The notes under the pieces: generated by a model
The model's input: the letters and a program-made list of their open reading frames with translations, nothing else
What the model was told of the DNA's origin: nothing
Database searches by the model: none
Assembly: GCA_038063815.1 (NCBI GenBank)
Contig: JBBTUJ010000002.1
Location: 6,511 to 70,510 of the forward strand
Direction of reading: 5' to 3'
Source of the DNA: Patescibacteria group bacterium
GTDB taxonomy: Bacteria > Patescibacteriota > Minisyncoccia > Phycocordibacterales > EsbW-18
Length of the DNA: 64,000 bases
Translations under genes and position numbers: made by a program
In this document: in pieces, positions 4,806-40,645 of the stretch
Position numbering within the stretch: the first letter of the stretch is position 1
Layout of the letters: every line of letters starts with the position of its first letter

Positions 4806-6458
4806 TTATACCCCTATCACCACAGGGATGACGATGGGGGATTTTCCTGTCTTCTGGAAGAGAAAACGTCGCACGTCGTCCGTCACGGTGTTCTTGACGA
4901 TGTCGAAGTTGATGGGATGCATGCCGTGTGCGGTTGACTCAACGACTTTCCCGACTAAGGCACGCGTCGCGTTGATGAGTTCCTGCTGTTCTTTGAGGTA
5001 GACGAATCCGCGGGAGATGATATCGGGTGATTTGCGGAGTTTACCTGTTTTTGGGTTAACTGAGATGACAATGACGCAGATACCATCAGCAGAAAGAGTT
5101 TGTCTATCACGAAGAACTACTTCCTGTTGGCCTCCGACGGAGAACCCGTCAACCATGATGTCATCCGATGGTGCTTTATCTTTTCGAACGCGGATTTTCG
5201 TTCCGTTGTCATAGATTTCGATGATTGATCCGTTGTCTGGTACGACGATGTTGTCTTTCGGTGTCCCTAATGATTGGGCGAGTTCGGAGTGGATCTTCAA
5301 CATGTAGTGGTGACCGTGGAGAGGCACAAAGAATCTGTACTTGATTTGTTGGTGAATCCACCCAAGTTCGTCGCGGTTTCCGTGGCCCGATGCGTGGACA
5401 GTTGTATCAAGATACGTAACAATCTTTGCGTCTTGCCTATAGAGATTGTCTTTGAGTTTCTGAACCGCCATCTCGTTTCCGGGAATGACCGATGAAGAAA
5501 AGAGAATAGTATCCGAGGGCGACAGGGTAATGTATTTGTGGCTCTTGCTCGAGATCCTGTCGAATCCCGCGAACTCTTCTCCTTGTGCTCCTGTTGTCAA
5601 AATGACGATTTTTTGAGGAGGGTGCTCGGTCATTTCTTCGATAGGAATGAGGTTGTCAACGGGCACAAGACCAAGTTGTTTTACGATTTCCAAGTTCGAT
5701 TTCATGCTCCTGCCGTCGATAATAACTTTTTTGTGGTACTTGTTCGCAATCTTGATTATTTCGATGATGCGTTCGACGTTTGAGGCGAACGTTCCGATGA
5801 TGAGCCGCCCAGCAACATCCTTCATAATCTGGTCAATGGTCTCTGTTGCGTGTGACTCGGGGATAGAAAATCCGGGCTTTTCGACTGACGTTGAGTCAAG
5901 TGTAAAGAGAAGGATTTCCTTGTTTTTGAAGAGCTCGTAGTGATCGATTTCTTTTTGTGTCACTTTTCCGCCAACGTGATCCACGCGGACATCTTCAACA
6001 AATGCAACGGTGCCAACCGGCGTCTCGATAAGGAGACCCATCGAATCAGGGATTGCGTGCGAGATAGCAAAAAAGGTGATGGAAAAATTCTTTCCGATCT
6101 GTATACGCTCGTCGCCTCGCACCGTTTTGATATCCAAGGGCTCGGAATTGGGAAATTCGCTTTGGCGTTTTTGAATCATGAGAGACCCGAATTCGCGAGA
6201 ATAAATCGGTGGGTTACCAATCGAGTCCATGACATACGGGATACCGCCGATATGGTCGAGGTGTCCGTGTGTGATGAAGAGCGCCTTCACTTTCTCTTTT
6301 CGCTCTTTGAGATAGGTGATGTCAGGAATAATGAAATCAACTCCTGGTGTCTCAACCTCGCCGAACTGGAGGCCTGCGTCAACGATGATAATCTCATCGC
6401 CGTATTCGATCGCAGTCATGTTCTTACCAATCTCCTCGACACCTCCTAATGGAATCAT
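4806..6458 (-). CDS. rnj: Ribonuclease J (metallo-beta-lactamase/beta-CASP)
   Basis: MIPLGGVEEIGKNMTAIEY, HGHLDHIGG motif and beta-CASP region. Start set at the Met that gives an N-terminus typical of RNase J (550 aa). An AGGAGG lies 11 nt upstream. The ORF track extends another 152 codons (to 6914) through a GC-rich spacer. Confidence 0.8.
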   Translation of the reverse strand: MIPLGGVEEIGKNMTAIEYGDEIIIVDAGLQFGEVETPGVDFIIPDITYLKERKEKVKALFITHGHLDHIGGIPYVMDSIGNPPIYSREFGSLMIQKRQSEFPNSEPLDIKTVRGDERIQIGKNFSITFFAISHAIPDSMGLLIETPVGTVAFVEDVRVDHVGGKVTQKEIDHYELFKNKEILLFTLDSTSVEKPGFSIPESHATETIDQIMKDVAGRLIIGTFASNVERIIEIIKIANKYHKKVIIDGRSMKSNLEIVKQLGLVPVDNLIPIEEMTEHPPQKIVILTTGAQGEEFAGFDRISSKSHKYITLSPSDTILFSSSVIPGNEMAVQKLKDNLYRQDAKIVTYLDTTVHASGHGNRDELGWIHQQIKYRFFVPLHGHHYMLKIHSELAQSLGTPKDNIVVPDNGSIIEIYDNGTKIRVRKDKAPSDDIMVDGFSVGGQQEVVLRDRQTLSADGICVIVISVNPKTGKLRKSPDIISRGFVYLKEQQELINATRALVGKVVESTAHGMHPINFDIVKNTVTDDVRRFLFQKTGKSPIVIPVVIGV

Positions 6459-6943
6459 GCGAAGGACGCCCTCCTCTGGGGGTGGGATGTGGACGCCGTA
6501 CGTTGTCGGCATTGTTGTCTTCGGGTGTGGAATACGATCGCGTCTCTGAAAGCCGCCTCGGCCTCTTCCGCCCCCCCCACGCGATTTATCACCAGAAGGA
6601 CGTTTGGAATGCGTTGGATGTGCGTGGGGATGTCCCAACGGTCGGCTTGGTGGGCGACTCGATGGTCGCGCTTGCTGATGCGGCCGTGCTCCTCGATGAG
6701 GATGTTGGTGGGGTGTCGTGGTGTGGGGCGCGAGAGCGCTGAAGGTGCGTCTCCGCCGCATGCCGGTGTCTCCGGCAACCTGTCCGTTACTTTGTTGAGG
6801 CCTTGGTGTCGGTATGCTCTCGGGTGCACGAAGGACGCGGATGCGTGATCTCTGTTGACCGTCTGCGCCAATATTGCGACGGCCAAGCTGGTGGCGATGT
6901 GAATTGTCTATCATTAACGATGCTTAATTGAGTAAGAAGTGCC

Positions 6944-8668
6944 TTAGTTGTTTTGAAATAGTGAAAGAATGCTTCGGGTCGCTTTGTGCCACGAATAGAC
7001 ATCCATAAAACGTTCACTTGCTTCATCCAGCGGTCCCGCAGAGATTCCTTTGAGGATTTTGGGAACGAGGTAGAGCATTTCCGGAGCGTACAGGAACACT
7101 GCCGGCATGTCGGATTCGATTTCTTCTGCAAGCGAGACGTAGAGTTCTTGCCGTTCGTTTGCGTCAAGGGTGGTCCGAATGTCCTCCAGTATAGCATCGG
7201 TCGTTATGTTTGCATAGAGGGCGATATTGAGGCCCGGGTCGTTTCTTTGTGAAGAATGCCAGAAGGGAAAAAGATCTCCGCCGCGTCCGATGACTTGTCC
7301 GAACAGGAGCGCGTCATATGCACGTGGGCGGATCACTTCTTGGTGGAGCGCTCCGATGTCGAAGAGTTCTATTGTGACCAGTACTCCCAAGTTCTCCCAC
7401 ATGCGCTTCAGAACCTCCGCGGTTCTCTTCAGCTCGGGCGTGTTCGCCGTTGAGAGTGTGAAGGAGAGCGGAGCGTCATCTTTCATAAAAATACCATCCT
7501 CTCCCATCTCCCAACCATCTTCTTCAAGAAGCGCACGTGCTTCCTTGAGGGTCCCTTTGACATGTTCTTTCGAAAAGTTTTCCAACGGCGGAATAACAGG
7601 GCCTGTCACGGGATTTCCGTAGCCATAGAGCACTTCCGTGATGAGTACGTCCGTATCAATAGAGGTTGAGAGTGCTTCACGAATAGTCGCATCGGTGAAA
7701 ATCTCTTTTTCATTTTGATTAAAGAAAACACCAAAGAGACGTGTCAGAGGATAACGGATAATGCGCACATCGTCCTCGAGATCGTGTCCGTATACAGGAT
7801 CGATTCCCTTGACGGTGTCGATGGTGTCACTGAGGAATGCCTCAAGGGCCGCTTCCTCAGTATCATATGTTTTGATACGGAGACCTTGAAGGCGCGGAGC
7901 ACCGAGTGTGAAATTGGTGAAGCGCGTGAGGGCATATTCAGTGGGGATTCCCGATGCGTCACGTGTTACACGGTCTACCTTGAACGGTCCTGATCCAACC
8001 GGTAGTGTATTCAGTCGATGTACTGGAAATGTTTCTGCTGTTGTGTTTTCCCACAAATAACGGGGGAGAATGCCCAATGTCGTGTTTTCCAAAAATGGTG
8101 TATATGGCCGAGGTAATGTAAAGACAACGGTGTGTGTATCTTCCGCCGCGACGGTGATGCCCTCCCATATATATTGAACAGCGCTTCCCATGAACGGATC
8201 TTGGGCGCGCGTGATTGTGAAAACGACATCTTCCGCTGTTACAGGTTGCCCATCGTGGAACGTGGCATCCTTTTTGAGTACGAATGTGTACACGGTGCCG
8301 TCATCTGACACGGTGTACTTCTCTGCCAAGTCCGGCACGAGAGTTCCTTCCGGTGTCGGCCGCATAAGGCCGGAATAGATAAGTGCGGACAAGTCCTTGT
8401 CGATATCCGACTGTGCGAGAAGTGGATTTATGAACCGCGGCGTTCCGACGATGCCTTCCGTGAGAGTGCCTCCCGATGCGGGCACAGTGACGGAGTATTC
8501 TTTCCAAAGGGTCCGAAGCATGATGCCCGTTGAGATGACGAGAACGAGTCCAAGTGTGGAGAGGAGTATCCGTTCAAGGAAAGAGAGACGCGAAAGTCCC
8601 TCGCGAAGCGCGCGAGTGCCGGGAAGTGTGGTCAAGCGTTGTAAATCAGGAGTGTTCACAAAAAACAA
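6944..8668 (-). CDS. ABC-transporter substrate-binding protein, family 5 (oligopeptide/dipeptide-type), membrane anchored, orphan
   Basis: 574 aa with an N-terminal TM anchor and SBP_bac_5-like organisation. No permease or ATPase genes adjacent. Confidence 0.75.
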   Translation of the reverse strand: MFFVNTPDLQRLTTLPGTRALREGLSRLSFLERILLSTLGLVLVISTGIMLRTLWKEYSVTVPASGGTLTEGIVGTPRFINPLLAQSDIDKDLSALIYSGLMRPTPEGTLVPDLAEKYTVSDDGTVYTFVLKKDATFHDGQPVTAEDVVFTITRAQDPFMGSAVQYIWEGITVAAEDTHTVVFTLPRPYTPFLENTTLGILPRYLWENTTAETFPVHRLNTLPVGSGPFKVDRVTRDASGIPTEYALTRFTNFTLGAPRLQGLRIKTYDTEEAALEAFLSDTIDTVKGIDPVYGHDLEDDVRIIRYPLTRLFGVFFNQNEKEIFTDATIREALSTSIDTDVLITEVLYGYGNPVTGPVIPPLENFSKEHVKGTLKEARALLEEDGWEMGEDGIFMKDDAPLSFTLSTANTPELKRTAEVLKRMWENLGVLVTIELFDIGALHQEVIRPRAYDALLFGQVIGRGGDLFPFWHSSQRNDPGLNIALYANITTDAILEDIRTTLDANERQELYVSLAEEIESDMPAVFLYAPEMLYLVPKILKGISAGPLDEASERFMDVYSWHKATRSILSLFQNN

Positions 8669-28489: not shown

Positions 28490-29086
28490 TTACTGGTTGA
28501 GGAGGAGAAGATCTTCGATCTCGATAGAGCGGACGACTGCCTTCACTGCTTCATAGCGCGCTCGTGCGCGCTCATGAATGTGTCGCACCGTTCTGCCAAG
28601 CCCGAGGTACACTTCCTCGCCGGCACCAAGAACTTCTTGCAGGACCACATCTGTAGCGGGAAGGGCGGGACCTGATGGTACCCGCATCTCTCCCATGCGT
28701 TGTAGAAGTTCGAGGAGGGAGACCGTTGTCGTCTCCAGGGTAGCAACGTGCTCCCTTTCCTTCACGACGACGATACACCACTCGCCGTCAACAGTGAACC
28801 CGTAGAACCACTGGTCGACTCCGGTGGGCGCGTTCTCTAGTAGTGCCCAGGCCCTGCTAAAGAGTCGAAAGTGTCCGTACAGATTCCACCTCTTGTCGTC
28901 GACATGTTTGGTGCCTTTGTTTCCTGGCACCTGTGAATACACGTCGGTGAATTTCGTTGGTGTGAATGTTGCAAACAGCACAAAGAGCGTTTTGGCGCGC
29001 CGCTCGATGAGGCGCACCCACTTTTCTGGGCTTGTGACTCTCTGACTGCACATCCGCACGACAGGATTTCCCCTCAGATTGCTCAT
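28490..29086 (-). CDS. Hypothetical protein, 198 aa, GC-rich codon usage
   Basis: GAAGGAG SD 6 nt upstream of the ATG at 29086. No recognisable domain. GC3-rich codons unlike the flanking dus and dnaX. Confidence 0.5.
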   Translation of the reverse strand: MSNLRGNPVVRMCSQRVTSPEKWVRLIERRAKTLFVLFATFTPTKFTDVYSQVPGNKGTKHVDDKRWNLYGHFRLFSRAWALLENAPTGVDQWFYGFTVDGEWCIVVVKEREHVATLETTTVSLLELLQRMGEMRVPSGPALPATDVVLQEVLGAGEEVYLGLGRTVRHIHERARARYEAVKAVVRSIEIEDLLLLNQ

Positions 29087-29236
29087 CCTCTACTCCTTCT
29101 CTCCGGCTGGCGCACCTGCCGGTTGTATTGAGGGGCGCACCCCTCGGTCCGGAAGGAGTATGCCTTACATATCATTCTCGGGTCAATGAATACAACGTAC
29201 AAAAGAGTGTAATCAAGGCATGGTATACTCGTTCAT

Positions 29237-30277
29237 ATGAGTGGTGCCTTGTATCGAAAATACCGCCCCGCAGATTGGAAAAGCGTCAAAGGACAGAGCC
29301 ACATCGTTGCGGTTCTTGAAAAAGCGCTCAAAAACAGGAACATTTCGCACGCATATCTTTTTACCGGAAGCCGCGGAACAGGGAAGACAACTGTTGCGCG
29401 AATCGTTGCGCGAGAAATCGGCACGACGGAGAGAGATCTTTATGAACTTGATGCGGCATCGAACCGAGGCATTGATGATGTTCGTGCGCTTCGTGAAGCG
29501 GTTTATACACTCCCATTCGAATCAAAGTACAAGGTTTACATTATCGACGAGGTGCACATGCTCACCAAAGAAGCGTTCAATGCGCTTTTGAAGACGCTCG
29601 AAGAACCACCGGAGCACGTCGTGTTCATTCTTGCGACAACGGAAATTGAAAAACTTCCTGAGACGATTGTATCGCGTTGCGAAGTGCATACATTCAAACA
29701 ACCGTCGCGCGACATTCTCCGCGAGCATATGGAAGAGATTGCAAAAGAAGAAGGGTATCAACTTGAACCAGCCGCGGCAGATCTCATCGCGCTTCTTGCT
29801 GAAGGATCATTTCGTGACGCGCATGGTGTTCTCCAAAAGATTCTGAATGCGTCATCGGGGAAAAAAGTAAGTGTTGATGATGTAGCTCTTCTCACCGGAG
29901 CACCAAAAGGAACGCTTGTGAACGGGATTATCTCTGCGATTGAGAAGGGAAGCACAGACGAGGCCCTCTCGCATGTTGCGGACGCGTCAAAAGCAAATAT
30001 TGATATGCGCGTGTTTGTAAAACTCATCCTTGAAAAGATGCGCGCAGTGCTTCTTTTGCGTTTTGCCGAGGCACACCTCTTGAAATCACTTGAAGGAGAA
30101 TACACAGAAGAAGACCTCGCGTTCTTAAAAGAATGTGCAAAGAATACTCAACCAAAGATTACTTCATCAGCACTTTCTCGATTTTTAGACGCGTACAGCG
30201 AAACATCTCGTGCAACAATTCCGTCCCTCCCTCTCGAACTTGCGATACTCGATGTGATAGGGAATACTGGCCAGTGA
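29237..30277 (+). CDS. dnaX: DNA polymerase III subunit gamma (short DnaX, no tau extension)
   Basis: YRKYRP, Walker A GSRGTGKTT, DEVHML, SRC motif. Confidence 0.9.
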   Translation: MSGALYRKYRPADWKSVKGQSHIVAVLEKALKNRNISHAYLFTGSRGTGKTTVARIVAREIGTTERDLYELDAASNRGIDDVRALREAVYTLPFESKYKVYIIDEVHMLTKEAFNALLKTLEEPPEHVVFILATTEIEKLPETIVSRCEVHTFKQPSRDILREHMEEIAKEEGYQLEPAAADLIALLAEGSFRDAHGVLQKILNASSGKKVSVDDVALLTGAPKGTLVNGIISAIEKGSTDEALSHVADASKANIDMRVFVKLILEKMRAVLLLRFAEAHLLKSLEGEYTEEDLAFLKECAKNTQPKITSSALSRFLDAYSETSRATIPSLPLELAILDVIGNTGQ

Positions 30278-30291
30278 TACGAGAAGAACAC

Positions 30292-30362
30292 TGCCGGATC
30301 GTCTAATGGTAGGACACCGCCCTTTGGAGGCGGGTATCTTGGTTCGAATCCAAGTCCGGCAA
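30292..30362 (+). tRNA. tRNA-Gln (anticodon TTG)
   Basis: U1-A72 acceptor TGCCGGA/TCCGGCA, anticodon stem CCGCC/GGCGG with loop CTTTGGA, T-arm CTTGG-TTCGAAT-CCAAG. No encoded CCA. Confidence 0.8.
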
Positions 30363-30380
30363 TAACCTTAAAAAAGAAAC

Positions 30381-30902
30381 GTGAAAGTATTACTCACTGG
30401 CGTAGCAGGAACAGGAAAATCGACCCTTACGAAAGCTTTGGCGGCAAGGGGACTTACGGCTATAGATCTCCACGATGTGCCTGAACTCTGTTTCTGGCAA
30501 GATAAGAAAACCAAAGAGAGGGTCGAATATGTTCCTACCACCTCACGGGAGTGGTTCGATACTGTAGACCGTCTTTGCGACATTCACCGGCTGAAAGAGT
30601 TACTTAACCAACAGGACGATATTATTGTGGCTGGCACGGCAGGTGAAAGTCAGAAGGACTATCTTCCGTTGTTCGATAAGGTCATACTCTTACAATGCAG
30701 TTCTAGAGCTGTCATCCATCGCATGCAGACAAGAACAAATAAGTCTGGATACGGAAAAACAAAAGCAGAACAAGACGATAACATCGAATGGCAAAAGGGG
30801 TTTGACCACGATCTCCTTGCGCACGGTGCCATTCCATTGAATACGGAGGGCAGTATTGATGAGACGGTGGATAAAATTGTTGAGATAACAAGGGCGGGTT
30901 AG
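30381..30902 (+). CDS. Small P-loop NTPase, putative nucleoside/nucleotide kinase-like (AAA_33-like)
   Basis: Walker A GVAGTGKST in a 173-aa protein. Sole occupant of the segment between tRNA-Gln and the repeat of its 3-prime end. Confidence 0.55.
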   Translation: MKVLLTGVAGTGKSTLTKALAARGLTAIDLHDVPELCFWQDKKTKERVEYVPTTSREWFDTVDRLCDIHRLKELLNQQDDIIVAGTAGESQKDYLPLFDKVILLQCSSRAVIHRMQTRTNKSGYGKTKAEQDDNIEWQKGFDHDLLAHGAIPLNTEGSIDETVDKIVEITRAG

Positions 30903-30943
30903 TTCGAATCCCTGCCTGCGACAGGCAGGCAAGTCCGGCAATA
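30902..30943 (+). repeat. Direct repeat of the tRNA-Gln 3-prime end (gttcgaatcc + aagtccggcaata), interrupted by a 19-nt palindromic insert; att-like scar
   Basis: Matches 30342-30364 exactly (10 + 13 nt). The insert ctgcctgcgacaggcaggc is self-complementary. Confidence 0.6.
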
Positions 30944-30981
30944 CTCTGGTTTAGTATCGAGATTATAACTATTAATTCCAT

Positions 30982-31479
30982 ATGAACGACTTTGAAAAAG
31001 GAAACCAAAACAACGACCCCAAAACAGGCGCTTCAGCAAAGTTGCATGAAAGGCTTGTTGAGGCGACGAGCAATATTACACGCGATGTTCCGAAGGTGAA
31101 ACGGGAGAACGACTTTTTTGATACCTTAGGTGACAACCTCAAGCGAACGGTTGGCGAAGTTCCGGACACCGAACGCTTGCAAGCTGCTCTCGATAGGGAT
31201 ATGGAGTATATGAGGGACACTGTAAGGCGGTCGGTAAAGAATGCATCTGAAGCACCACTACTCCAAGAAACTGAAATGCTTTCCCTTCAGATAAAGGTCG
31301 GGAAAGAAGCTGTGGCGATGGAGGTACCTATCGGAACGAGTGAGGATGACATAGAAAGAATCGTTCTAGAAAACGAGGCCGTCAAGGCGCTCGTAGGTGG
31401 AAAAAGCATTAAAAAGTTCTATCTCAAGAAGCGTTTGAAAGAAGGCACGGTGCACATCTTTTTAAGTGAAACTGAATAA
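30982..31479 (+). CDS. Hypothetical protein, 165 aa
   Basis: Charged and soluble. No recognisable domain. Confidence 0.45.
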   Translation: MNDFEKGNQNNDPKTGASAKLHERLVEATSNITRDVPKVKRENDFFDTLGDNLKRTVGEVPDTERLQAALDRDMEYMRDTVRRSVKNASEAPLLQETEMLSLQIKVGKEAVAMEVPIGTSEDDIERIVLENEAVKALVGGKSIKKFYLKKRLKEGTVHIFLSETE

Positions 31480-31518
31480 AAGTTGTTCCAACATCGTCTC
31501 CTCACAGCCAACTAATAT

Positions 31519-32127
31519 ATGAATAACGAAGCAGACTTAAAATCAATCTTCAACTTCCTAAAAACTGCGCGCGAACTACAGCATGTGGAAAGGGCTACAC
31601 CGCATCCAAATGGAAGACAGGAGAACGACGCTGAACATTCTTGGGCGGTCGCACTTGCGTGTGTCCTTGTGGCATCAAGACTTTCAAAAGAATTCGGCGT
31701 GGCTTTAGATCAGACAAAAATGCTCAAAATGGCACTTATTCATGACTTGGCCGAGGTAGGAACGGGTGACACAAAAACGTGGGATGACGCATCAAGGGTA
31801 AACAAAGAAGAAAAAGAGCGCGAGGTAATGCAAAACATGATCAAATCTTTACCCCAAGACGTCGCCGATGAAATATCTTCGCTTTGGGAAGAGTGCGAGA
31901 AGAAAGAAACTCTCGAGGCACAAATAGTCAAATCTATTGATCGGTTTGATCCCGTCATTCACCGTACTGCGTTTGGGGTGGGGTGGAAAGGGATAGACGA
32001 AGAACATGCATCAATAACGGCGGTGGACTCACGCCAAGAGCCGAGGCACTCTTTCTCAAAGACCTTGACGAGACTGTATGAGATTATTCGTCTCGAAGCG
32101 GATTCAAAAGGGGTATTTAAAGCATAA
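31519..32127 (+). CDS. HD-domain phosphohydrolase, YfbR-like 5-prime-deoxynucleotidase family
   Basis: H...HD...D metal ligands (AEHSWAVA ... LIHDLAEVGTGD ... D). Confidence 0.7.
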   Translation: MNNEADLKSIFNFLKTARELQHVERATPHPNGRQENDAEHSWAVALACVLVASRLSKEFGVALDQTKMLKMALIHDLAEVGTGDTKTWDDASRVNKEEKEREVMQNMIKSLPQDVADEISSLWEECEKKETLEAQIVKSIDRFDPVIHRTAFGVGWKGIDEEHASITAVDSRQEPRHSFSKTLTRLYEIIRLEADSKGVFKA

Positions 32128-32173
32128 TCCTGTTCCAGCATCGTCTCACACAGTCAATACCAACTGAGTAATC

Positions 32174-32899
32174 ATGAATGACTTATATAAAAACGACTTT
32201 GAATTTTTTCTTGCTCACACAAGCGAAAAGCAAATTTTGGGTGAAGAAATCTTGAAAGATATACAGAGATTTAACGTAGAATCGCTACTTGATATAGGAG
32301 CGGGAAACGGATTGCTAAGCATACCGCTTTCAAAAAGTGTAAAAAGATATCTCGCTGTTGAACCTACGGAGAAGTTCGCGGGTCGCCTTAAGAAGGCGGG
32401 GTTGGAGGTAATCTGCAGTACATTTCCGGTCCGTATAGACGGTCAGTTTGACATGGTGCTTTCCTCCCATGTTATTTCCTATCGTCAAAAGTATTTTAGA
32501 TCTTTTATACGAAGGGCTTGGAAATTGGTAAAACCAGGAGGCGTTTTCCTCCTTGTCACTTTCCGTGGGCAGGGTGACGACTGGGATACTTTCACCAAAT
32601 CACTAGGTGAAGATCGCTCAGTTAAACGTCAAGGTAGATTGGATGATATTCTTGAATTACTCCGGTCTCTTGGAGAGGTACAGATTCGCAAGGTGGTAAC
32701 GCATGTTAGGTCTAAGAGTCTTGACGACATGATTACCGCCCTCTCATTCGTCTATAGCAACGGTTTTGCTGAAGACAAGAACTCTTTTATGAAGAAATCG
32801 GAGACAGTTAAAAATATACTTACATCGAAGTACAAATCGGGTACGCAATACGTTTTTCCCTTCCAGCACCTTTTTGTATATGGCTTAAAGAAAGGGTAG
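32174..32899 (+). CDS. Class I SAM-dependent methyltransferase
   Basis: Motif I LDIGAGNG and motif post-I acidic residue. Confidence 0.7.
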   Translation: MNDLYKNDFEFFLAHTSEKQILGEEILKDIQRFNVESLLDIGAGNGLLSIPLSKSVKRYLAVEPTEKFAGRLKKAGLEVICSTFPVRIDGQFDMVLSSHVISYRQKYFRSFIRRAWKLVKPGGVFLLVTFRGQGDDWDTFTKSLGEDRSVKRQGRLDDILELLRSLGEVQIRKVVTHVRSKSLDDMITALSFVYSNGFAEDKNSFMKKSETVKNILTSKYKSGTQYVFPFQHLFVYGLKKG

Positions 32900-32978
32900 G
32901 AGGGAACGGGGTTAGGTTGTGGTGATTCCTCCTTGGGGCGCTCTTGACTCATTTTAATTTGTGCTAAAATAGGAGGAT

Positions 32979-33863
32979 ATGAAAAAAATAATCATTGCAG
33001 TTATTGTCATTATTCTAATCGGTCTTGGTATTTACGTTATGAGCACCCGTACGGCGGACGCACCTGCTGATAAGGCAACAACAACGCCCGTAACAACAAC
33101 GGTGGCTACCACTACGGTTTCTGACGAAACATCAATTGGTCTGTCAAAAGAAGGGCGTAAGATCGAGATTGCTCACTACGGCGAAGGAGACAAAGAGGTG
33201 CTTTTTGTCGGAGGTATTCACGGTGGCTACGAGTGGAACACAGTGCTCGTTGCGTATGAGCTGATGGATTTCTTGGAAGACAATCCAAACGAAATTCCTG
33301 CGGGCGTGAAAGTGTCGGTGATTCCAGTTTTGAACCCTGACGGCTTGAACAAAGTTGTCGGCACATCGGGTCGCTTCGAAGCATCCGATGTTCCTTCGGA
33401 CGCAAAGGCAACAGTTCCAGGCCGGTTTAATGCAAACAACGTTGACCTTAATCGCAATTTCGACTGCGATTGGCAGGCATCGGGCGTGTGGCAACAGACA
33501 ACTGTTAGTGGTGGTGCGTCGGCATTCTCCGAGCCGGAGAGTCAGGCAATGCGAGATTACGTTACCAAGAATGACCCAGATGCGGTTGTTGTTTGGTACA
33601 GTGCGGCAGGTGGTGTATTTGCATCAAGCTGTCACGATGGCGTTTTGCCAGCAACACTCAACCTTACCAACACATACGCACAGGCATCTGGCTATCCTGC
33701 ATATGAAGAATTTGATTTTTACGAGATCACTGGTGACATGGTCAACTGGCTCGCAAAAGAAAAGATTCCTGCAATCAGCGTACTTCTCACCAATCACACA
33801 AGCACCGAATGGGAAAAGAACTGGAAGGGTATTGATGCGCTCTTGGAATCAATCGTAGAGTAA
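32979..33863 (+). CDS. M14-family zinc carboxypeptidase (gamma-D-Glu-mDAP peptidase-like), membrane anchored, paralog 1
   Basis: Zinc ligands HGGYEWN, NPDG, DLNRNF, SFSEPES and C-terminal H. N-terminal TM plus Thr-rich linker. Confidence 0.7.
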   Translation: MKKIIIAVIVIILIGLGIYVMSTRTADAPADKATTTPVTTTVATTTVSDETSIGLSKEGRKIEIAHYGEGDKEVLFVGGIHGGYEWNTVLVAYELMDFLEDNPNEIPAGVKVSVIPVLNPDGLNKVVGTSGRFEASDVPSDAKATVPGRFNANNVDLNRNFDCDWQASGVWQQTTVSGGASAFSEPESQAMRDYVTKNDPDAVVVWYSAAGGVFASSCHDGVLPATLNLTNTYAQASGYPAYEEFDFYEITGDMVNWLAKEKIPAISVLLTNHTSTEWEKNWKGIDALLESIVE

Positions 33864-34726
33864 TGCGACCGTTTCTCAAAAAGATCCTTTTTGGAGTCGT
33901 CGTACTCTGTGTCGTCGCTCTCGGCGTGTTCTTTGTCTTGCGCAAAGATACAGAAATACCTGTGCCAGTGGACACCACTGTGCCCGAGTTCACATCAGTC
34001 GTAATCGGCACATCGGTACAGGGCCGTTCGATTGAGGCAATATCGTACGGCACGGGGGACACACACCTCCTGTTTGTCGGAGGCATTCACGGCGGATACG
34101 AGTGGAACAGCGTTCTGCTTGCGTATGAAATGATGGATTATCTTGAGCTTCATCCCGAACTCATTCCAGAAAATCTCACCGTAACGATTGTTCCATCTGC
34201 AAATCCAGACGGCGTATTCAAGGTTGTTGGCAAAGAGGGAAGATTTGCGCGCGCGGATGTTCCAGATGGAGATGATTCTCCCGGGCGATTTAACGCAAAC
34301 AATGTAGACCTTAATCGCAATTTTGATTGCAAGTGGAAGCCCGAGAGCATGTGGCGTGGTGATGTTGTTTCGGCGGGAACATCCGCATTCTCCGAGCCAG
34401 AGGCGCGCGCACTTCGCGACTTTGTGTTGGCAAATGACCCAGCCATTGTTGTCTTTTGGCATAGCCAATCAAACGCTGTCTATGCATCTGAATGCAAGGG
34501 TGGGATTTTGCCAGAGACACGCACGCTCATGAACCTCTATGCAAGTTCAGCCGGATATTCTGCGGTCGACACGTTCGACAGCTACGAAATCACTGGGGAC
34601 GCCGAAGGATGGCTCGCGTCCATCAACATTCCTGCAATTACCGTTGAGCTCTCGACACACGAAACAACAGAGTGGGAGAAAAATCTTGCGGGCATGAAGG
34701 CGCTTCTTACTCAATACGCAAGATAA
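33863..34726 (+). CDS. M14-family zinc carboxypeptidase, paralog 2 (start overlaps the previous stop)
   Basis: Same motif set (HGGYEWN, NPDG, DLNRNF, SFSEPEA). Tandem duplicate. Confidence 0.7.
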   Translation: MRPFLKKILFGVVVLCVVALGVFFVLRKDTEIPVPVDTTVPEFTSVVIGTSVQGRSIEAISYGTGDTHLLFVGGIHGGYEWNSVLLAYEMMDYLELHPELIPENLTVTIVPSANPDGVFKVVGKEGRFARADVPDGDDSPGRFNANNVDLNRNFDCKWKPESMWRGDVVSAGTSAFSEPEARALRDFVLANDPAIVVFWHSQSNAVYASECKGGILPETRTLMNLYASSAGYSAVDTFDSYEITGDAEGWLASINIPAITVELSTHETTEWEKNLAGMKALLTQYAR

Positions 34727-39343: not shown

Positions 39344-40060
39344 ATGCTACAGGGTAAAACTGTATTGATTTCAGGCTCTTCACGGGGAATTGGAGCTGCT
39401 ACTGCACGTTTAGCAAAAGAATACGGGGCAGAGGTTATTCTTCATGGGAAAACCGAAAGCCCTGAACTTGTATCTCTTGGTAAAGAACTCGGTGCTTCGT
39501 ACATACTGTGCGATGTTGCAAATGAGAGCGAAGTGTCTGAGGCGTTCAGGAAAATCTCTCACCTGGACGTATTGGTGAATTGTGCGGGAATCACCAATCC
39601 AAAGTCCTTTGCGGAAAGTACCGAAGAAGATTGGCTTAACGTATTTCGGATAAATGTTCTTGGAACAGTTAATTTTTGCAAAGCAGCATTACCACTGTTT
39701 CAAAAACAAGGTACTGGACGTATTGTAAACATCGCCTCTATTCGCGGGTATGGAATTATTTCTGGCCGTGCCGCCTATTCAACCTCGAAAGCCGCTATTA
39801 TCAATCTTACGTGTACACTTGCAAAAGAGTATGCGCCCGCTATTGCTGTAAATGCGATAGCCCCAGGTTTTACCAATACCGATATGGCCAAGACATGGGA
39901 TGAGGGAGTGTGGAAGCAAGTTCGATCAGCATTGCTTGAGCGTATCGGGGAACCCAAAGAGATCGCGGAAGCCATTTGTTTTTTGGGTAGTGAGAAAGCC
40001 AGCTTTATCACCGGCCAAACCCTTTTGGTAGATGGGGGCTACAGTATTGCAGGTAAATAG
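39344..40060 (+). CDS. SDR-family oxidoreductase (FabG-like)
   Basis: GSSRGIG cofactor motif, NCAG, catalytic YSTSKAA. Confidence 0.8.
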   Translation: MLQGKTVLISGSSRGIGAATARLAKEYGAEVILHGKTESPELVSLGKELGASYILCDVANESEVSEAFRKISHLDVLVNCAGITNPKSFAESTEEDWLNVFRINVLGTVNFCKAALPLFQKQGTGRIVNIASIRGYGIISGRAAYSTSKAAIINLTCTLAKEYAPAIAVNAIAPGFTNTDMAKTWDEGVWKQVRSALLERIGEPKEIAEAICFLGSEKASFITGQTLLVDGGYSIAGK

Positions 40061-40090
40061 GTTCCAATATCGCCCCACGCAACTAACAAT

Positions 40091-40645
40091 ATGAAATCTC
40101 ACACATATTACGTTCATCGTCTGATACGAGACCTCTGGGTCGTCCTCCTCTCAATCGTGCTCGCGGTCATTCTGGTGCGAACGGGAGCGCTTCAGACGCT
40201 TATCAATGCTGCGGAAGGGGCGCATATCCTTGGGAGTTTTCTTGCAGGTATCTTTTTTACGAGCGGGTTCACGATAGCACCGGCATCGGTCGCTCTTCTT
40301 GAGATTGCAAAGACAACGCCGCCACTCCTGGTTGCCTTGTGGGGTGCTATCGGTGCAACAGTGGGGGATCTCATCATATTCTTCTTTATACGTGATGCAT
40401 TTGTTGATGACCTCGTGGGGGCATTCAAGACATCACATACAGTCGCGGGTATCCTTTCCCACCTCCACTTCGCACTTTTGCGCTGGGTACTTCCCATCAT
40501 TGGAGCGATTATCATCGCGTCACCTCTTCCCGACGAACTCGGTCTCGCGTGTCTTGGGGTATCAAAGATACGGATTCGCTACCTCATCCCTCTTGCGTTT
40601 GTTTTTAATTTTATCGGTATCATTGTGATCACGCTTTTTGTGTAG
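40091..40645 (+). CDS. Hypothetical polytopic membrane protein
   Basis: Five to six TM helices. The first 17 nt duplicate the leader upstream of the SDR gene. Confidence 0.5.
   Translation: MKSHTYYVHRLIRDLWVVLLSIVLAVILVRTGALQTLINAAEGAHILGSFLAGIFFTSGFTIAPASVALLEIAKTTPPLLVALWGAIGATVGDLIIFFFIRDAFVDDLVGAFKTSHTVAGILSHLHFALLRWVLPIIGAIIIASPLPDELGLACLGVSKIRIRYLIPLAFVFNFIGIIVITLFV

Follow-up and report, generated by a model that had tools for sequence, protein, structure and literature searches.

A partial copy of the tRNA-Gln 3' end behind a single kinase gene suggests a tRNA-anchored island remnant in a Paceibacterota genome

A 64-kb stretch of contig JBBTUJ010000002.1 (the window), which belongs to a groundwater genome of the Paceibacterota within the Candidate Phyla Radiation (CPR), was analysed around an intact tRNA-Gln gene. 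This gene is followed by the gene of a 173-aa P-loop kinase, by a second, partial copy of the tRNA 3' portion and by three further genes in the same orientation. We lean towards reading the distal copy as a partial tRNA of attR type, now decayed and produced by site-specific recombination, in which case the kinase gene would be the only DNA left between attL and attR. CPR/Patescibacteria have tiny genomes and apparently few mobile elements, and to our knowledge next to nothing is known about the ways in which they acquire and swap accessory genes. If single genes are arrayed at tRNA-Gln between boundaries common to several Paceibacterota, gene flux in these bacteria would have a concrete route that can be tested. 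Should the repeat be no more than an old scar, the locus would be an ordinary island remnant.

The intact tRNA-Gln(UUG) gene was identified at 30292–30362 by ARAGORN and Rfam (RF00005, 63.7 bits); it has an A73 discriminator and does not encode the CCA end. Unless otherwise stated, this and all features of the window described below lie on the plus strand. The part of the gene that recurs, the proximal or attL-like copy (GGCGGGTATCTTGGTTCGAATCCAAGTCCGGCAATA, 30329–30364), begins with the 3' strand of the anticodon stem and ends 2 nt beyond the tRNA. The distal, attR-like copy at 30893–30943 consists of GGCGGGT, TAGTTCGAATCC, a 19-nt palindrome and AAGTCCGGCAATA, in that order. It corresponds to approximately 36 nt of the tRNA, from the anticodon-stem 3' strand to 3 nt beyond the 3' end; relative to the tRNA it has lost 4 nt, carries one mismatch and contains the palindrome insert. 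Two blocks are exact in both copies, namely GTTCGAATCC (30342–30351 and 30902–30911) and the 13-mer AAGTCCGGCAATA (30352–30364 and 30931–30943), with the same order and strand in each and with 19 nt between them in the distal copy. The initial annotation, which had reported the last 23 nt of the tRNA to recur around a 19-nt self-complementary insert, was thus correct on both counts, and the copy is longer than it had claimed. The distal copy also supplies the end of the kinase gene, whose last three codons and stop read AGG GCG GGT TAG. Among the Paceibacterota tRNA-Gln genes examined, A73 is found in the window (30362) and in the closest relative, L247 (1023), while all others have G73.

A chance origin of the repeat was ruled out by the exact blocks, by the uniqueness of the 13-mer, which occurs exactly only twice in 64 kb, by the pattern GGCGGGT-N(0-6)-GTTCGAATCC, whose matches are confined to the tRNA (30329–30351) and to 30893–30911, and by a shuffle test, in which the tRNA 3' end, locally aligned with gaps to the downstream region, scored 33 compared to a maximum of 24 in 200 shuffles. 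An assembly artefact was also rejected, since the 54-nt stretch with the distal copy is identical in five independent assemblies (L081–L085), which comprise GCA_964355065.1 (a Patescibacteria/Paceibacterota metagenome-assembled genome, whose contig CAYHBV010000001.1 matches the window without any difference), two ENA assemblies labelled 'Hain_H41', which we take to mean Hainich groundwater, and two Logan assemblies. Four of the assemblies (L082–L085) begin inside tRNA-Gln (positions 5–32), likely because co-occurring species share the 5' half of the tRNA, and such breaks limit population-level inference from contigs. When the part of the window from position 28 kb to 35 kb was scanned with Rfam at E values up to 1, the tRNA alone was matched and no other RNA family was found. 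A partial direct copy of a tRNA 3' portion that reaches 3 nt beyond its end is the signature of site-specific integration into a tRNA gene, and the data partly support such an event at this locus.

The linkage between tRNA-Gln and the kinase extends to other genomes. In at least 12 of approximately 25 loci, kinase orthologues were located 3' of, and co-oriented with, tRNA-Gln (UUG or CUG). This arrangement was seen in the window, L086, L087, L095, L099, L101, L155, L158, L161, L247 and L251, and in L096 the kinase adjoins a tRNA-Gln fragment. Zero to five unrelated genes are intercalated between tRNA and kinase, and the upstream contexts vary among loci. When each genome's own tRNA 3' end was used as query in an ungapped scan, copies were detected after the kinase in L087 (GGTTCTAACTCAAGACGGGCAGCTC, 19/25 identities, 48 nt past the kinase stop) and in L101 (GGTTCTAGCTCGAGTCGGCCAGCC, 17/24 identities, 70 nt past the stop), each of which beat all 300 shuffles (p<0.003). 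The L087 copy reproduces that genome's own lineage-specific acceptor strand plus two flanking nucleotides (CGGGCAGCTC), and in L101 the unit between tRNA-Gln and the partial copy contains the kinase only. The same scan found no post-kinase copy in seven other genomes. An nhmmer profile of tRNA-Gln was too weak to find 3' fragments because acceptor stems are species-specific.

Beyond the tRNA, gene content changes rapidly. Relatives with 50–60% DnaX identity keep the order dus-dnaX-tRNA-Gln and share no gene beyond the tRNA, and the region 3' of dnaX–tRNA-Gln is hypervariable among relatives, so that the locus has the form of a flexible island beside a specific tRNA with partial tRNAs inside. 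Loci L098 (from 2019) and L099 (from 5907) share a stretch of 6.6 kb with 99.985% identity that opens with the last 4 nt of tRNA-Gln, and they show no relation upstream of it, so that a rearrangement breakpoint coincides exactly with the 3' end of the tRNA. In L098, a P-type ATPase gene and the gene of a weakly TerS-like helix-turn-helix protein lie where dnaX...tRNA-Gln would be expected.

The four genes between the tRNA and position 32899 are co-oriented and lack Shine-Dalgarno sequences. They encode the kinase (30381–30902), a 165-aa ORFan (30982–31479), a 202-aa HD_3/YfbR-like phosphohydrolase (31519–32127) and a 241-aa class I S-adenosylmethionine (SAM)-dependent methyltransferase (32174–32899); the HD gene, which had been described as lying directly beyond the repeat, in fact follows the 165-aa open reading frame (ORF). 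The 16-nt spacer between the repeat and the GTG start of the kinase (ACCTTAAAAAAGAAAC, 30365–30380) contains neither a Shine-Dalgarno nor a promoter-like site, as judged from the sequence and a promoter scan, and no promoter-like site was reported on the plus strand anywhere in 29000–34000. The GC content of the array (0.42–0.47) is slightly below that of its flanks (0.48–0.53). Its right limit lies at 32944–32976, where TTGACT, 15 nt and TG-n-TAAAAT are followed by AGGAGG before the first M14 peptidase gene; read from the sequence, this is a near-consensus extended -10 promoter, which the scan did not report because of its 15-nt spacer.

A second type of boundary was found within the array, namely a conserved motif of approximately 30 nt (GGTTCCAACATCGTYCC...CA(A/G)C) that is present in six Paceibacterota genomes including the window. 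Copy 1 (31480–31517, GTTCCAACATCGTCTCC...CAGCCAA|CTAATAT, followed by the HD ATG) has its head 5 nt past the stop of the 165-aa gene, copy 2 (32130–32163, GTTCCAGCATCGTCTCACACAGTCAATACC) begins 4 nt past the HD stop, and copy 3 (40056–40091, GGTTCCAATATCGCCCCACGCAACTAACAAT, followed by ATG) directly adjoins (0 nt) the stop of an SDR gene 9 kb downstream. The whole 165-aa/HD and HD/methyltransferase spacers and the spacer after the SDR gene are copies of a single motif. Copy 3 reached a position weight matrix score of 27.1, with zero matches in five shuffled windows; its 24.4 bits (E 1.4e-5) with model R1 are a match by construction, as copy 3 is among the 10 sequences from which R1 was built. 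In the other genomes, copies were located in L086 (three; 5946–5983, 6535–6571 and 7125–7160), L087 (two, minus strand; 1440–1473 and 660–693), L003 (14326–14361), L103 (1024–1061) and L247 (two, at ~1358 and ~1911, plus degenerate copies).

The motif is attached to stop codons, with a same-strand ORF of at least 60 codons ending -1 to 8 nt from the motif head in 9/12 copies; the following start codon lies at variable distances. The distal tRNA copy stands to the kinase stop as the motif copies do to theirs, so that a boundary element is found 0–5 nt past the stop in three of the four array genes (kinase, 165-aa and HD), the methyltransferase gene being the one without. The tail of copy 1 (GCCAACTAATATATG; GCCAA|CTAATAT|ATG) differs from the end of tRNA-Gln(CUG) in L247 (GGCAA|CTAATAT|ATG) by one base, at the degenerate position 2 (GCC vs GGC), and the pattern GSCAACTAATATATG, which combines the L247 tRNA-Gln 3' end, its flank and the start codon, has a single match in the window, the motif before HD. 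Tails end in CAA in the two A73 genomes (window and L247) and mostly in CAG in G73 genomes. Possible roles of the motif are those of a site for recombination, a signal for processing or a target of a regulator. Its alignment revealed no internal complementarity and no attC-like inverted-repeat symmetry, and 80 matches in viral contigs were largely due to one unrelated recurring conserved sequence, taken to be phage coding sequence, the rest being scattered and without extended similarity. A direct repeat, GTTCC-N6-GTTCC, is contained in the motif.

The insert that splits the distal tRNA copy belongs to a different sequence family. The 19-nt palindrome (CCTGCCTGCGACAGGCAGG, 30911–30929, no strand assigned) has the form CCTGCCTG-CGA-CAGGCAGG, folds into a hairpin with an 8-bp stem (-13.7 kcal/mol, z -3.2) is unique in the window and belongs to the dispersed family CCTGCCTGC(N0-2)GCAGGCAGG. 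Members of this family are also present in the Paceibacterota loci L008 (3466–3483, 10867–10884 and ~6266), L003 (~3680), L106 (318–335) and L247 (1927–1946 and ~4542). The DnaX gene of L008 contains, relative to that of L003, an exact 18-nt in-frame palindrome insertion of six codons (LPAQAG), a second ORF holds a palindrome in both L003 and L008, and in L106 the palindrome interrupts a tRNA-Gln-like 5' fragment. In L247, a 20-nt palindrome (1927–1946) lies inside a copy of the boundary motif whose uninterrupted twin is found 550 nt away, and a shorter variant follows the kinase. This pair of interrupted and intact twins identifies the split in the window as a secondary insertion; the distal tRNA copy was originally contiguous, and the palindrome is a separate element. 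Read by eye, the palindrome 18-mer is free of stop codons in all frames on both strands. Searches for the palindrome in viral contigs gave 25 uninformative matches, mostly in high-GC contigs, and a literature search by sequence gave no match. Rickettsia palindromic elements are small palindromic elements that insert in-frame into genes, and the present palindrome (18–20 nt) resembles them in being stop-free and in-frame in dnaX and one other ORF as well as present in non-coding DNA. Unlike those elements, it is approximately 10-fold shorter, perfect and without a known transposase. Its in-frame position in essential genes such as dnaX provides a second lead, possibly to a mobile or repair-associated process.

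Similar scars and a common spacer motif in relatives suggest that tRNA-Gln anchors an array of single-gene inserts, and a tRNA-seeded additive region appears to be the most economical reading of the locus. We infer that integrase-mediated recombination at the 3' portion of tRNA-Gln would have inserted DNA and displaced the old 3' end, from the anticodon-stem 3' strand to the discriminator plus 3 nt. The intact tRNA would then represent attL, all DNA but the kinase would have been lost from the proximal unit, and the scar would subsequently have been disabled by the 4-nt deletion and the later insertion of the small dispersed palindrome. The kinase unit would be the tRNA-proximal member of an additive array of kinase, 165-aa, HD and methyltransferase genes, in which the boundary of the kinase would be the tRNA copy, that of the 165-aa and HD genes the ~30-nt motif with a tail imitating the tRNA-Gln 3' end and flank, and the methyltransferase gene would have none. 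As no recombinase is nearby, the unit is probably fixed, or movable only by a recombinase acting in trans. Judging from the 16-nt spacer and the GTG start, the kinase is most likely expressed by read-through from the tRNA-Gln promoter. In L087, L099 and L101, the kinase is preceded by a spacer of approximately 90 nt with a TATAAT box, a region that has no counterpart in the window, where the tRNA abuts the kinase. The orthologues in these three loci, and also those in L091 and L141, display a CGCACGAGACGCGT-like motif with the TATAAT box 6–10 nt before the ATG, which suggests leaderless transcripts.

Several observations weigh against an origin by integration. The segment between the two tRNA copies holds the 173-aa P-loop gene and no integrase, just as the initial annotation had stated, and no integrase was found among the Pfam-annotated genes of 20381–40902, nor recognised by eye among the ORFs of at least 150 aa in 1–26500 and of at least 140 aa in 39000–64000. 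The Pfam-annotated related loci likewise gave no recognisable integrase, nor did further relatives with dus-dnaX-tRNA-Gln, the ORFs of which were read by eye only. No empty site was found in a comparison that covered five same-species contigs, all of them occupied, and distant species (L001–L008, the only ones with tRNA-Gln loci that lack the kinase) but no close relative outside the species; no circular junction was observed, and neither the attB/tRNA core nor the hairpin junction had any match in viral contigs, i.e. no attP-like sequence was detected. Over its full length, the 30-nt motif is not significantly similar to the tRNA 3' end (p 0.01–0.8); the idea that the entire motif is a diverged tRNA 3' end was therefore rejected and a tRNA relation is claimed for the tail only. 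Moreover, the kinase ORF almost fills the gap between the copies, starting 16 nt after the first and overlapping the second, a tight fit that a large element decaying at random would hardly be expected to leave. Finally, kinase identities correlate with DnaX identities (r = 0.84, a correlation driven by one outgroup), and a kinase that broadly tracks DnaX is compatible with an old, vertically inherited tRNA-Gln–kinase pair. The earlier reading of the repeat as an att site therefore stands in part: the shape of the partial copy, the copies in L087 and L101 and the hypervariable flank speak for it, while the missing integrase, empty site and viral attP match do not.

The locus was compared with several described systems. 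Islands of Prochlorococcus have been modelled as additive and seeded by a tRNA gene, with partial tRNAs scattered through them (bioRxiv 10.1101/2020.12.28.424599), and the present region resembles these tycheposon-driven islands (Hackl et al., bioRxiv 10.1101/2020.12.28.424599) in having a full-length tRNA at the proximal end and partial 3' copies inside, accessory genes that later insertions have moved away from the tRNA, variability that peaks beside the tRNA, a majority of island material without integrases, and a streamlined host genome. Unlike in Prochlorococcus, no tyrosine-recombinase or replication hallmark genes were found in the loci examined, the units are single genes of 0.5–0.7 kb, a conserved 'head' motif that is not tRNA-like comes after the ORFs, and it is tRNA-Gln that is targeted, in a CPR host. 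In particular, the tycheposon hallmarks, a tRNA-specific tyrosine recombinase and a replication/packaging module, are absent from the window, L155, L158, L161 and L247, and the sole hint obtained in the hallmark search was the weak TerS-like protein of L098.

With classical tRNA-integrating prophages and islands (Campbell-type attL/attR), the locus shares an intact tRNA at one end and a degenerate direct repeat of its 3' portion at the other, the repeat running from the anticodon stem/loop side to just beyond the 3' end with the tRNA regenerated. Williams reportedly defined, in 2002, sublocation classes of tRNA-gene integration. In contrast to the classical elements, there is no integrase, the unit spans only 526–579 bp, the attR is broken by indels, and the cargo is conserved lineage-wide and not obviously foreign. 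The array further recalls integron arrays (attI/attC) in its promoterless, co-oriented single-ORF units, of which three out of four are followed by a site-like element, in the single upstream promoter presumed to serve them, and in the hairpin of some boundary elements. It differs from them in that no IntI or attI was found in the window, the motif has neither attC-like inverted repeats nor the R''/L''-L'/R' architecture, the palindrome occurs only in some copies, as a separate insert, and the anchor is a tRNA gene instead of attI. A tRNA-anchored island remnant is a known type of structure; the boundary motif and the palindrome are two unexplained sequence families that are possibly new, and a literature search turned up nothing on tRNA-anchored islands in CPR bacteria or on the palindrome.

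The resemblance to integrons raises the alternative that the units are active cassettes, i.e. promoterless ORFs with a 3' site made of a tRNA-like head, an optional hairpin and a tail, which would move in and out at the tRNA-Gln 3' end by means of a recombinase encoded elsewhere and be expressed from the tRNA promoter. The trimming of the 579-bp kinase unit to its ORF, the kinase-only unit of L101, the attachment of boundary elements to stop codons, the variation among genomes of the genes between boundaries, the agreement of CAA/CAG tails (CAG mostly) with A73/G73 tRNA-Gln and the L098/L099 breakpoint at the tRNA end would all fit such cassettes. We nevertheless consider them unlikely, given that neither a recombinase nor any circular or empty junction was found, that the motif lacks attC-like symmetry, occurs in just six genomes of the sample and is not significantly similar to the tRNA overall, and that the site in the window is damaged by two indels. 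A broader version, in which Paceibacterota would carry an undescribed, integron-analogous cassette system anchored at tRNA-Gln, with ORFs bearing a T-loop-like head and a tRNA-3'-end-like tail, a recombinase in trans and a separate mobile, stop-free palindrome of 18–20 nt peppering both sites and coding genes, is a bold and rather unlikely proposal. The repeat might also have arisen without any integrase, through a tandem duplication, not site-specific, of the tRNA 3' part together with the kinase and subsequent loss of the second kinase. Although the copies are direct repeats close to each other (~560 bp from start to start) and no integrase was found, this scenario demands that a deletion stopped exactly 3 nt beyond the tRNA, the partial copies after the kinase in L087 and L101 end at that same position, and no remnant of a second kinase is present, which makes it improbable.

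A role at the RNA level was also weighed, in which the pseudo-tRNA and hairpin would act as a 3' processing, stabilising or termination signal of a tRNA-Gln–kinase co-transcript, and genes without Shine-Dalgarno sequences would use the 30-nt motif as a signal for processing or translation. The strong hairpin at the stop codon, the conserved position of the elements relative to stop codons, a motif head conserved where proteins share only 60–70% identity, and the conservation of the tail, the 7-nt leader and the ATG in front of array genes that lack Shine-Dalgarno sequences point in this direction. On the other hand, the hairpin is a dispersed insertion that also occurs within ORFs, the 5' acceptor strand needed for a tRNA-like helix is missing and no Rfam family was matched; an RNA element is thus quite unlikely. 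Two of its possible forms were rejected outright: no intrinsic terminator was predicted at the hairpin, which is not followed by a U-tract, and the predicted folds of the post-kinase elements of L087, L101 and L108 are inconsistent with each other, so that no conserved secondary structure could be assumed. Both the RNA-element and the duplication explanations are less well supported than the island remnant.

The proteins of the array also bear on the proposal, made when the region was first annotated, that they form a nucleotide-pool, nucleic-acid-modification or defence module. The kinase matches Pfam AAA_18 (50.7 bits, cut-off 29.4), and its AlphaFold2 model (pLDDT 83.8) is closest to AK6/hCINAP and Fap7 in Foldseek (TM 0.65), so that a generic nucleoside monophosphate (NMP)-kinase fold with a P-loop and membership in the NMP-kinase-like AAA_18 kinases are predicted. 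Homologues were found in more than 120 clusters with 58–71% identity, and the few whose source is named are all Paceibacterota/Patescibacteria; the kinase is not an odd cargo but a widespread Paceibacterota family that is habitually linked to tRNA-Gln. The HD protein (Pfam HD_3 3.3e-36, YfbR-like 2.3e-18) has homologues with up to 66% identity, mostly from Patescibacteria where the source is named, in unrelated contexts. The methyltransferase matches Pfam Methyltransf_11/12/23/25, while its NCBIfam matches are all far below cut-offs and assign no specificity. The 165-aa protein, which matched nothing in Pfam, PADLOC or PHROGs, has only four remote relatives among 1.84 billion representatives. 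Its N-terminus is helical in a low-confidence model, and its C-terminal domain (residues 99–161), which is well modelled, resembles the C-terminal domain of bacterial leucyl-tRNA synthetase (LeuRS; Foldseek E 1e-4, 66 columns, rmsd 2.1 Å); sub-threshold sequence matches fall on LeuRS residues 822–869, the same residues as the fold match. The LeuRS C-terminal domain binds the tRNA elbow.

A functional module for tRNA/RNA repair, modification or defence, composed of the kinase, a tRNA-binding protein, an HD phosphoesterase and a methyltransferase, for which adjacency to the tRNA would matter, could draw on this LeuRS-like domain. In L246 (47–628 and 725–1192), the sole traceable homologue of the 165-aa gene likewise follows a P-loop kinase-like gene, here of a different family, on a contig that begins with GACGGCTAACAAATA, resembling the motif tail. 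PADLOC further gave a match of the methyltransferase to mad2 (2.5e-15) and one of the kinase to VakA (3.5e-5). Yet 0/69 metagenome kinase loci carry an HD, methyltransferase or 165-aa gene nearby, and with the HD homologues in unrelated contexts a dedicated kinase/HD/methyltransferase module is not supported. The mad2 match covers only profile positions 277–421 of 492 and is read as a methyltransferase domain, the VakA match is weak, the 165-aa and HD proteins gave none, and no single defence system was matched; PADLOC, PHROGs and NCBIfam returned nothing specific for the array proteins, and the kinase fold is that of a generic NMP kinase. In RNA end-healing modules such as Pnkp/Hen1 and HD-Pnk, kinase, phosphoesterase and methyltransferase are conserved as a unit with a ligase. 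Here a ligase is absent and other genomes do not keep these genes together, which makes a module of this kind very improbable and leaves the earlier proposal without support.

If the array were mobile, metagenomic reads would be predicted to contain defined junctions, which are tRNA-Gln ...GGCAATA followed by CTCTGGTTTAGTATCG for the empty site and ...CAAGTCCGGCAATA followed by ACCTTAAAAAAGAAACGTG for the circle.

Further features were noted around tRNA-Gln genes in the related loci. Fragments of the tRNA-Gln 5' portion lie just before the intact gene in L001 (11046–11074), L005 (15685–15702), L155 (2195–2211) and L106 (9–46), and in L155 a LAGLIDADG homing-endonuclease gene is located between the fragment and the tRNA. 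Genes of defence or addiction type, identified by Pfam as Trypco2, KwaB, HicA and APH, follow tRNA-Gln in L158/L160. Two further cases near tRNA-Gln were judged from reading the ORFs only, namely a DNA methyltransferase together with what may be its restriction partner (L002, 7513–8983) and a putative toxin-antitoxin pair (L086, 4504–5034). In the window itself, the array gives way at 32979–34726 to tandem M14 carboxypeptidase paralogues, with DNA blocks approximately 78% identical, and then a VanY-type carboxypeptidase, which together form an ordinary cell-wall cluster.

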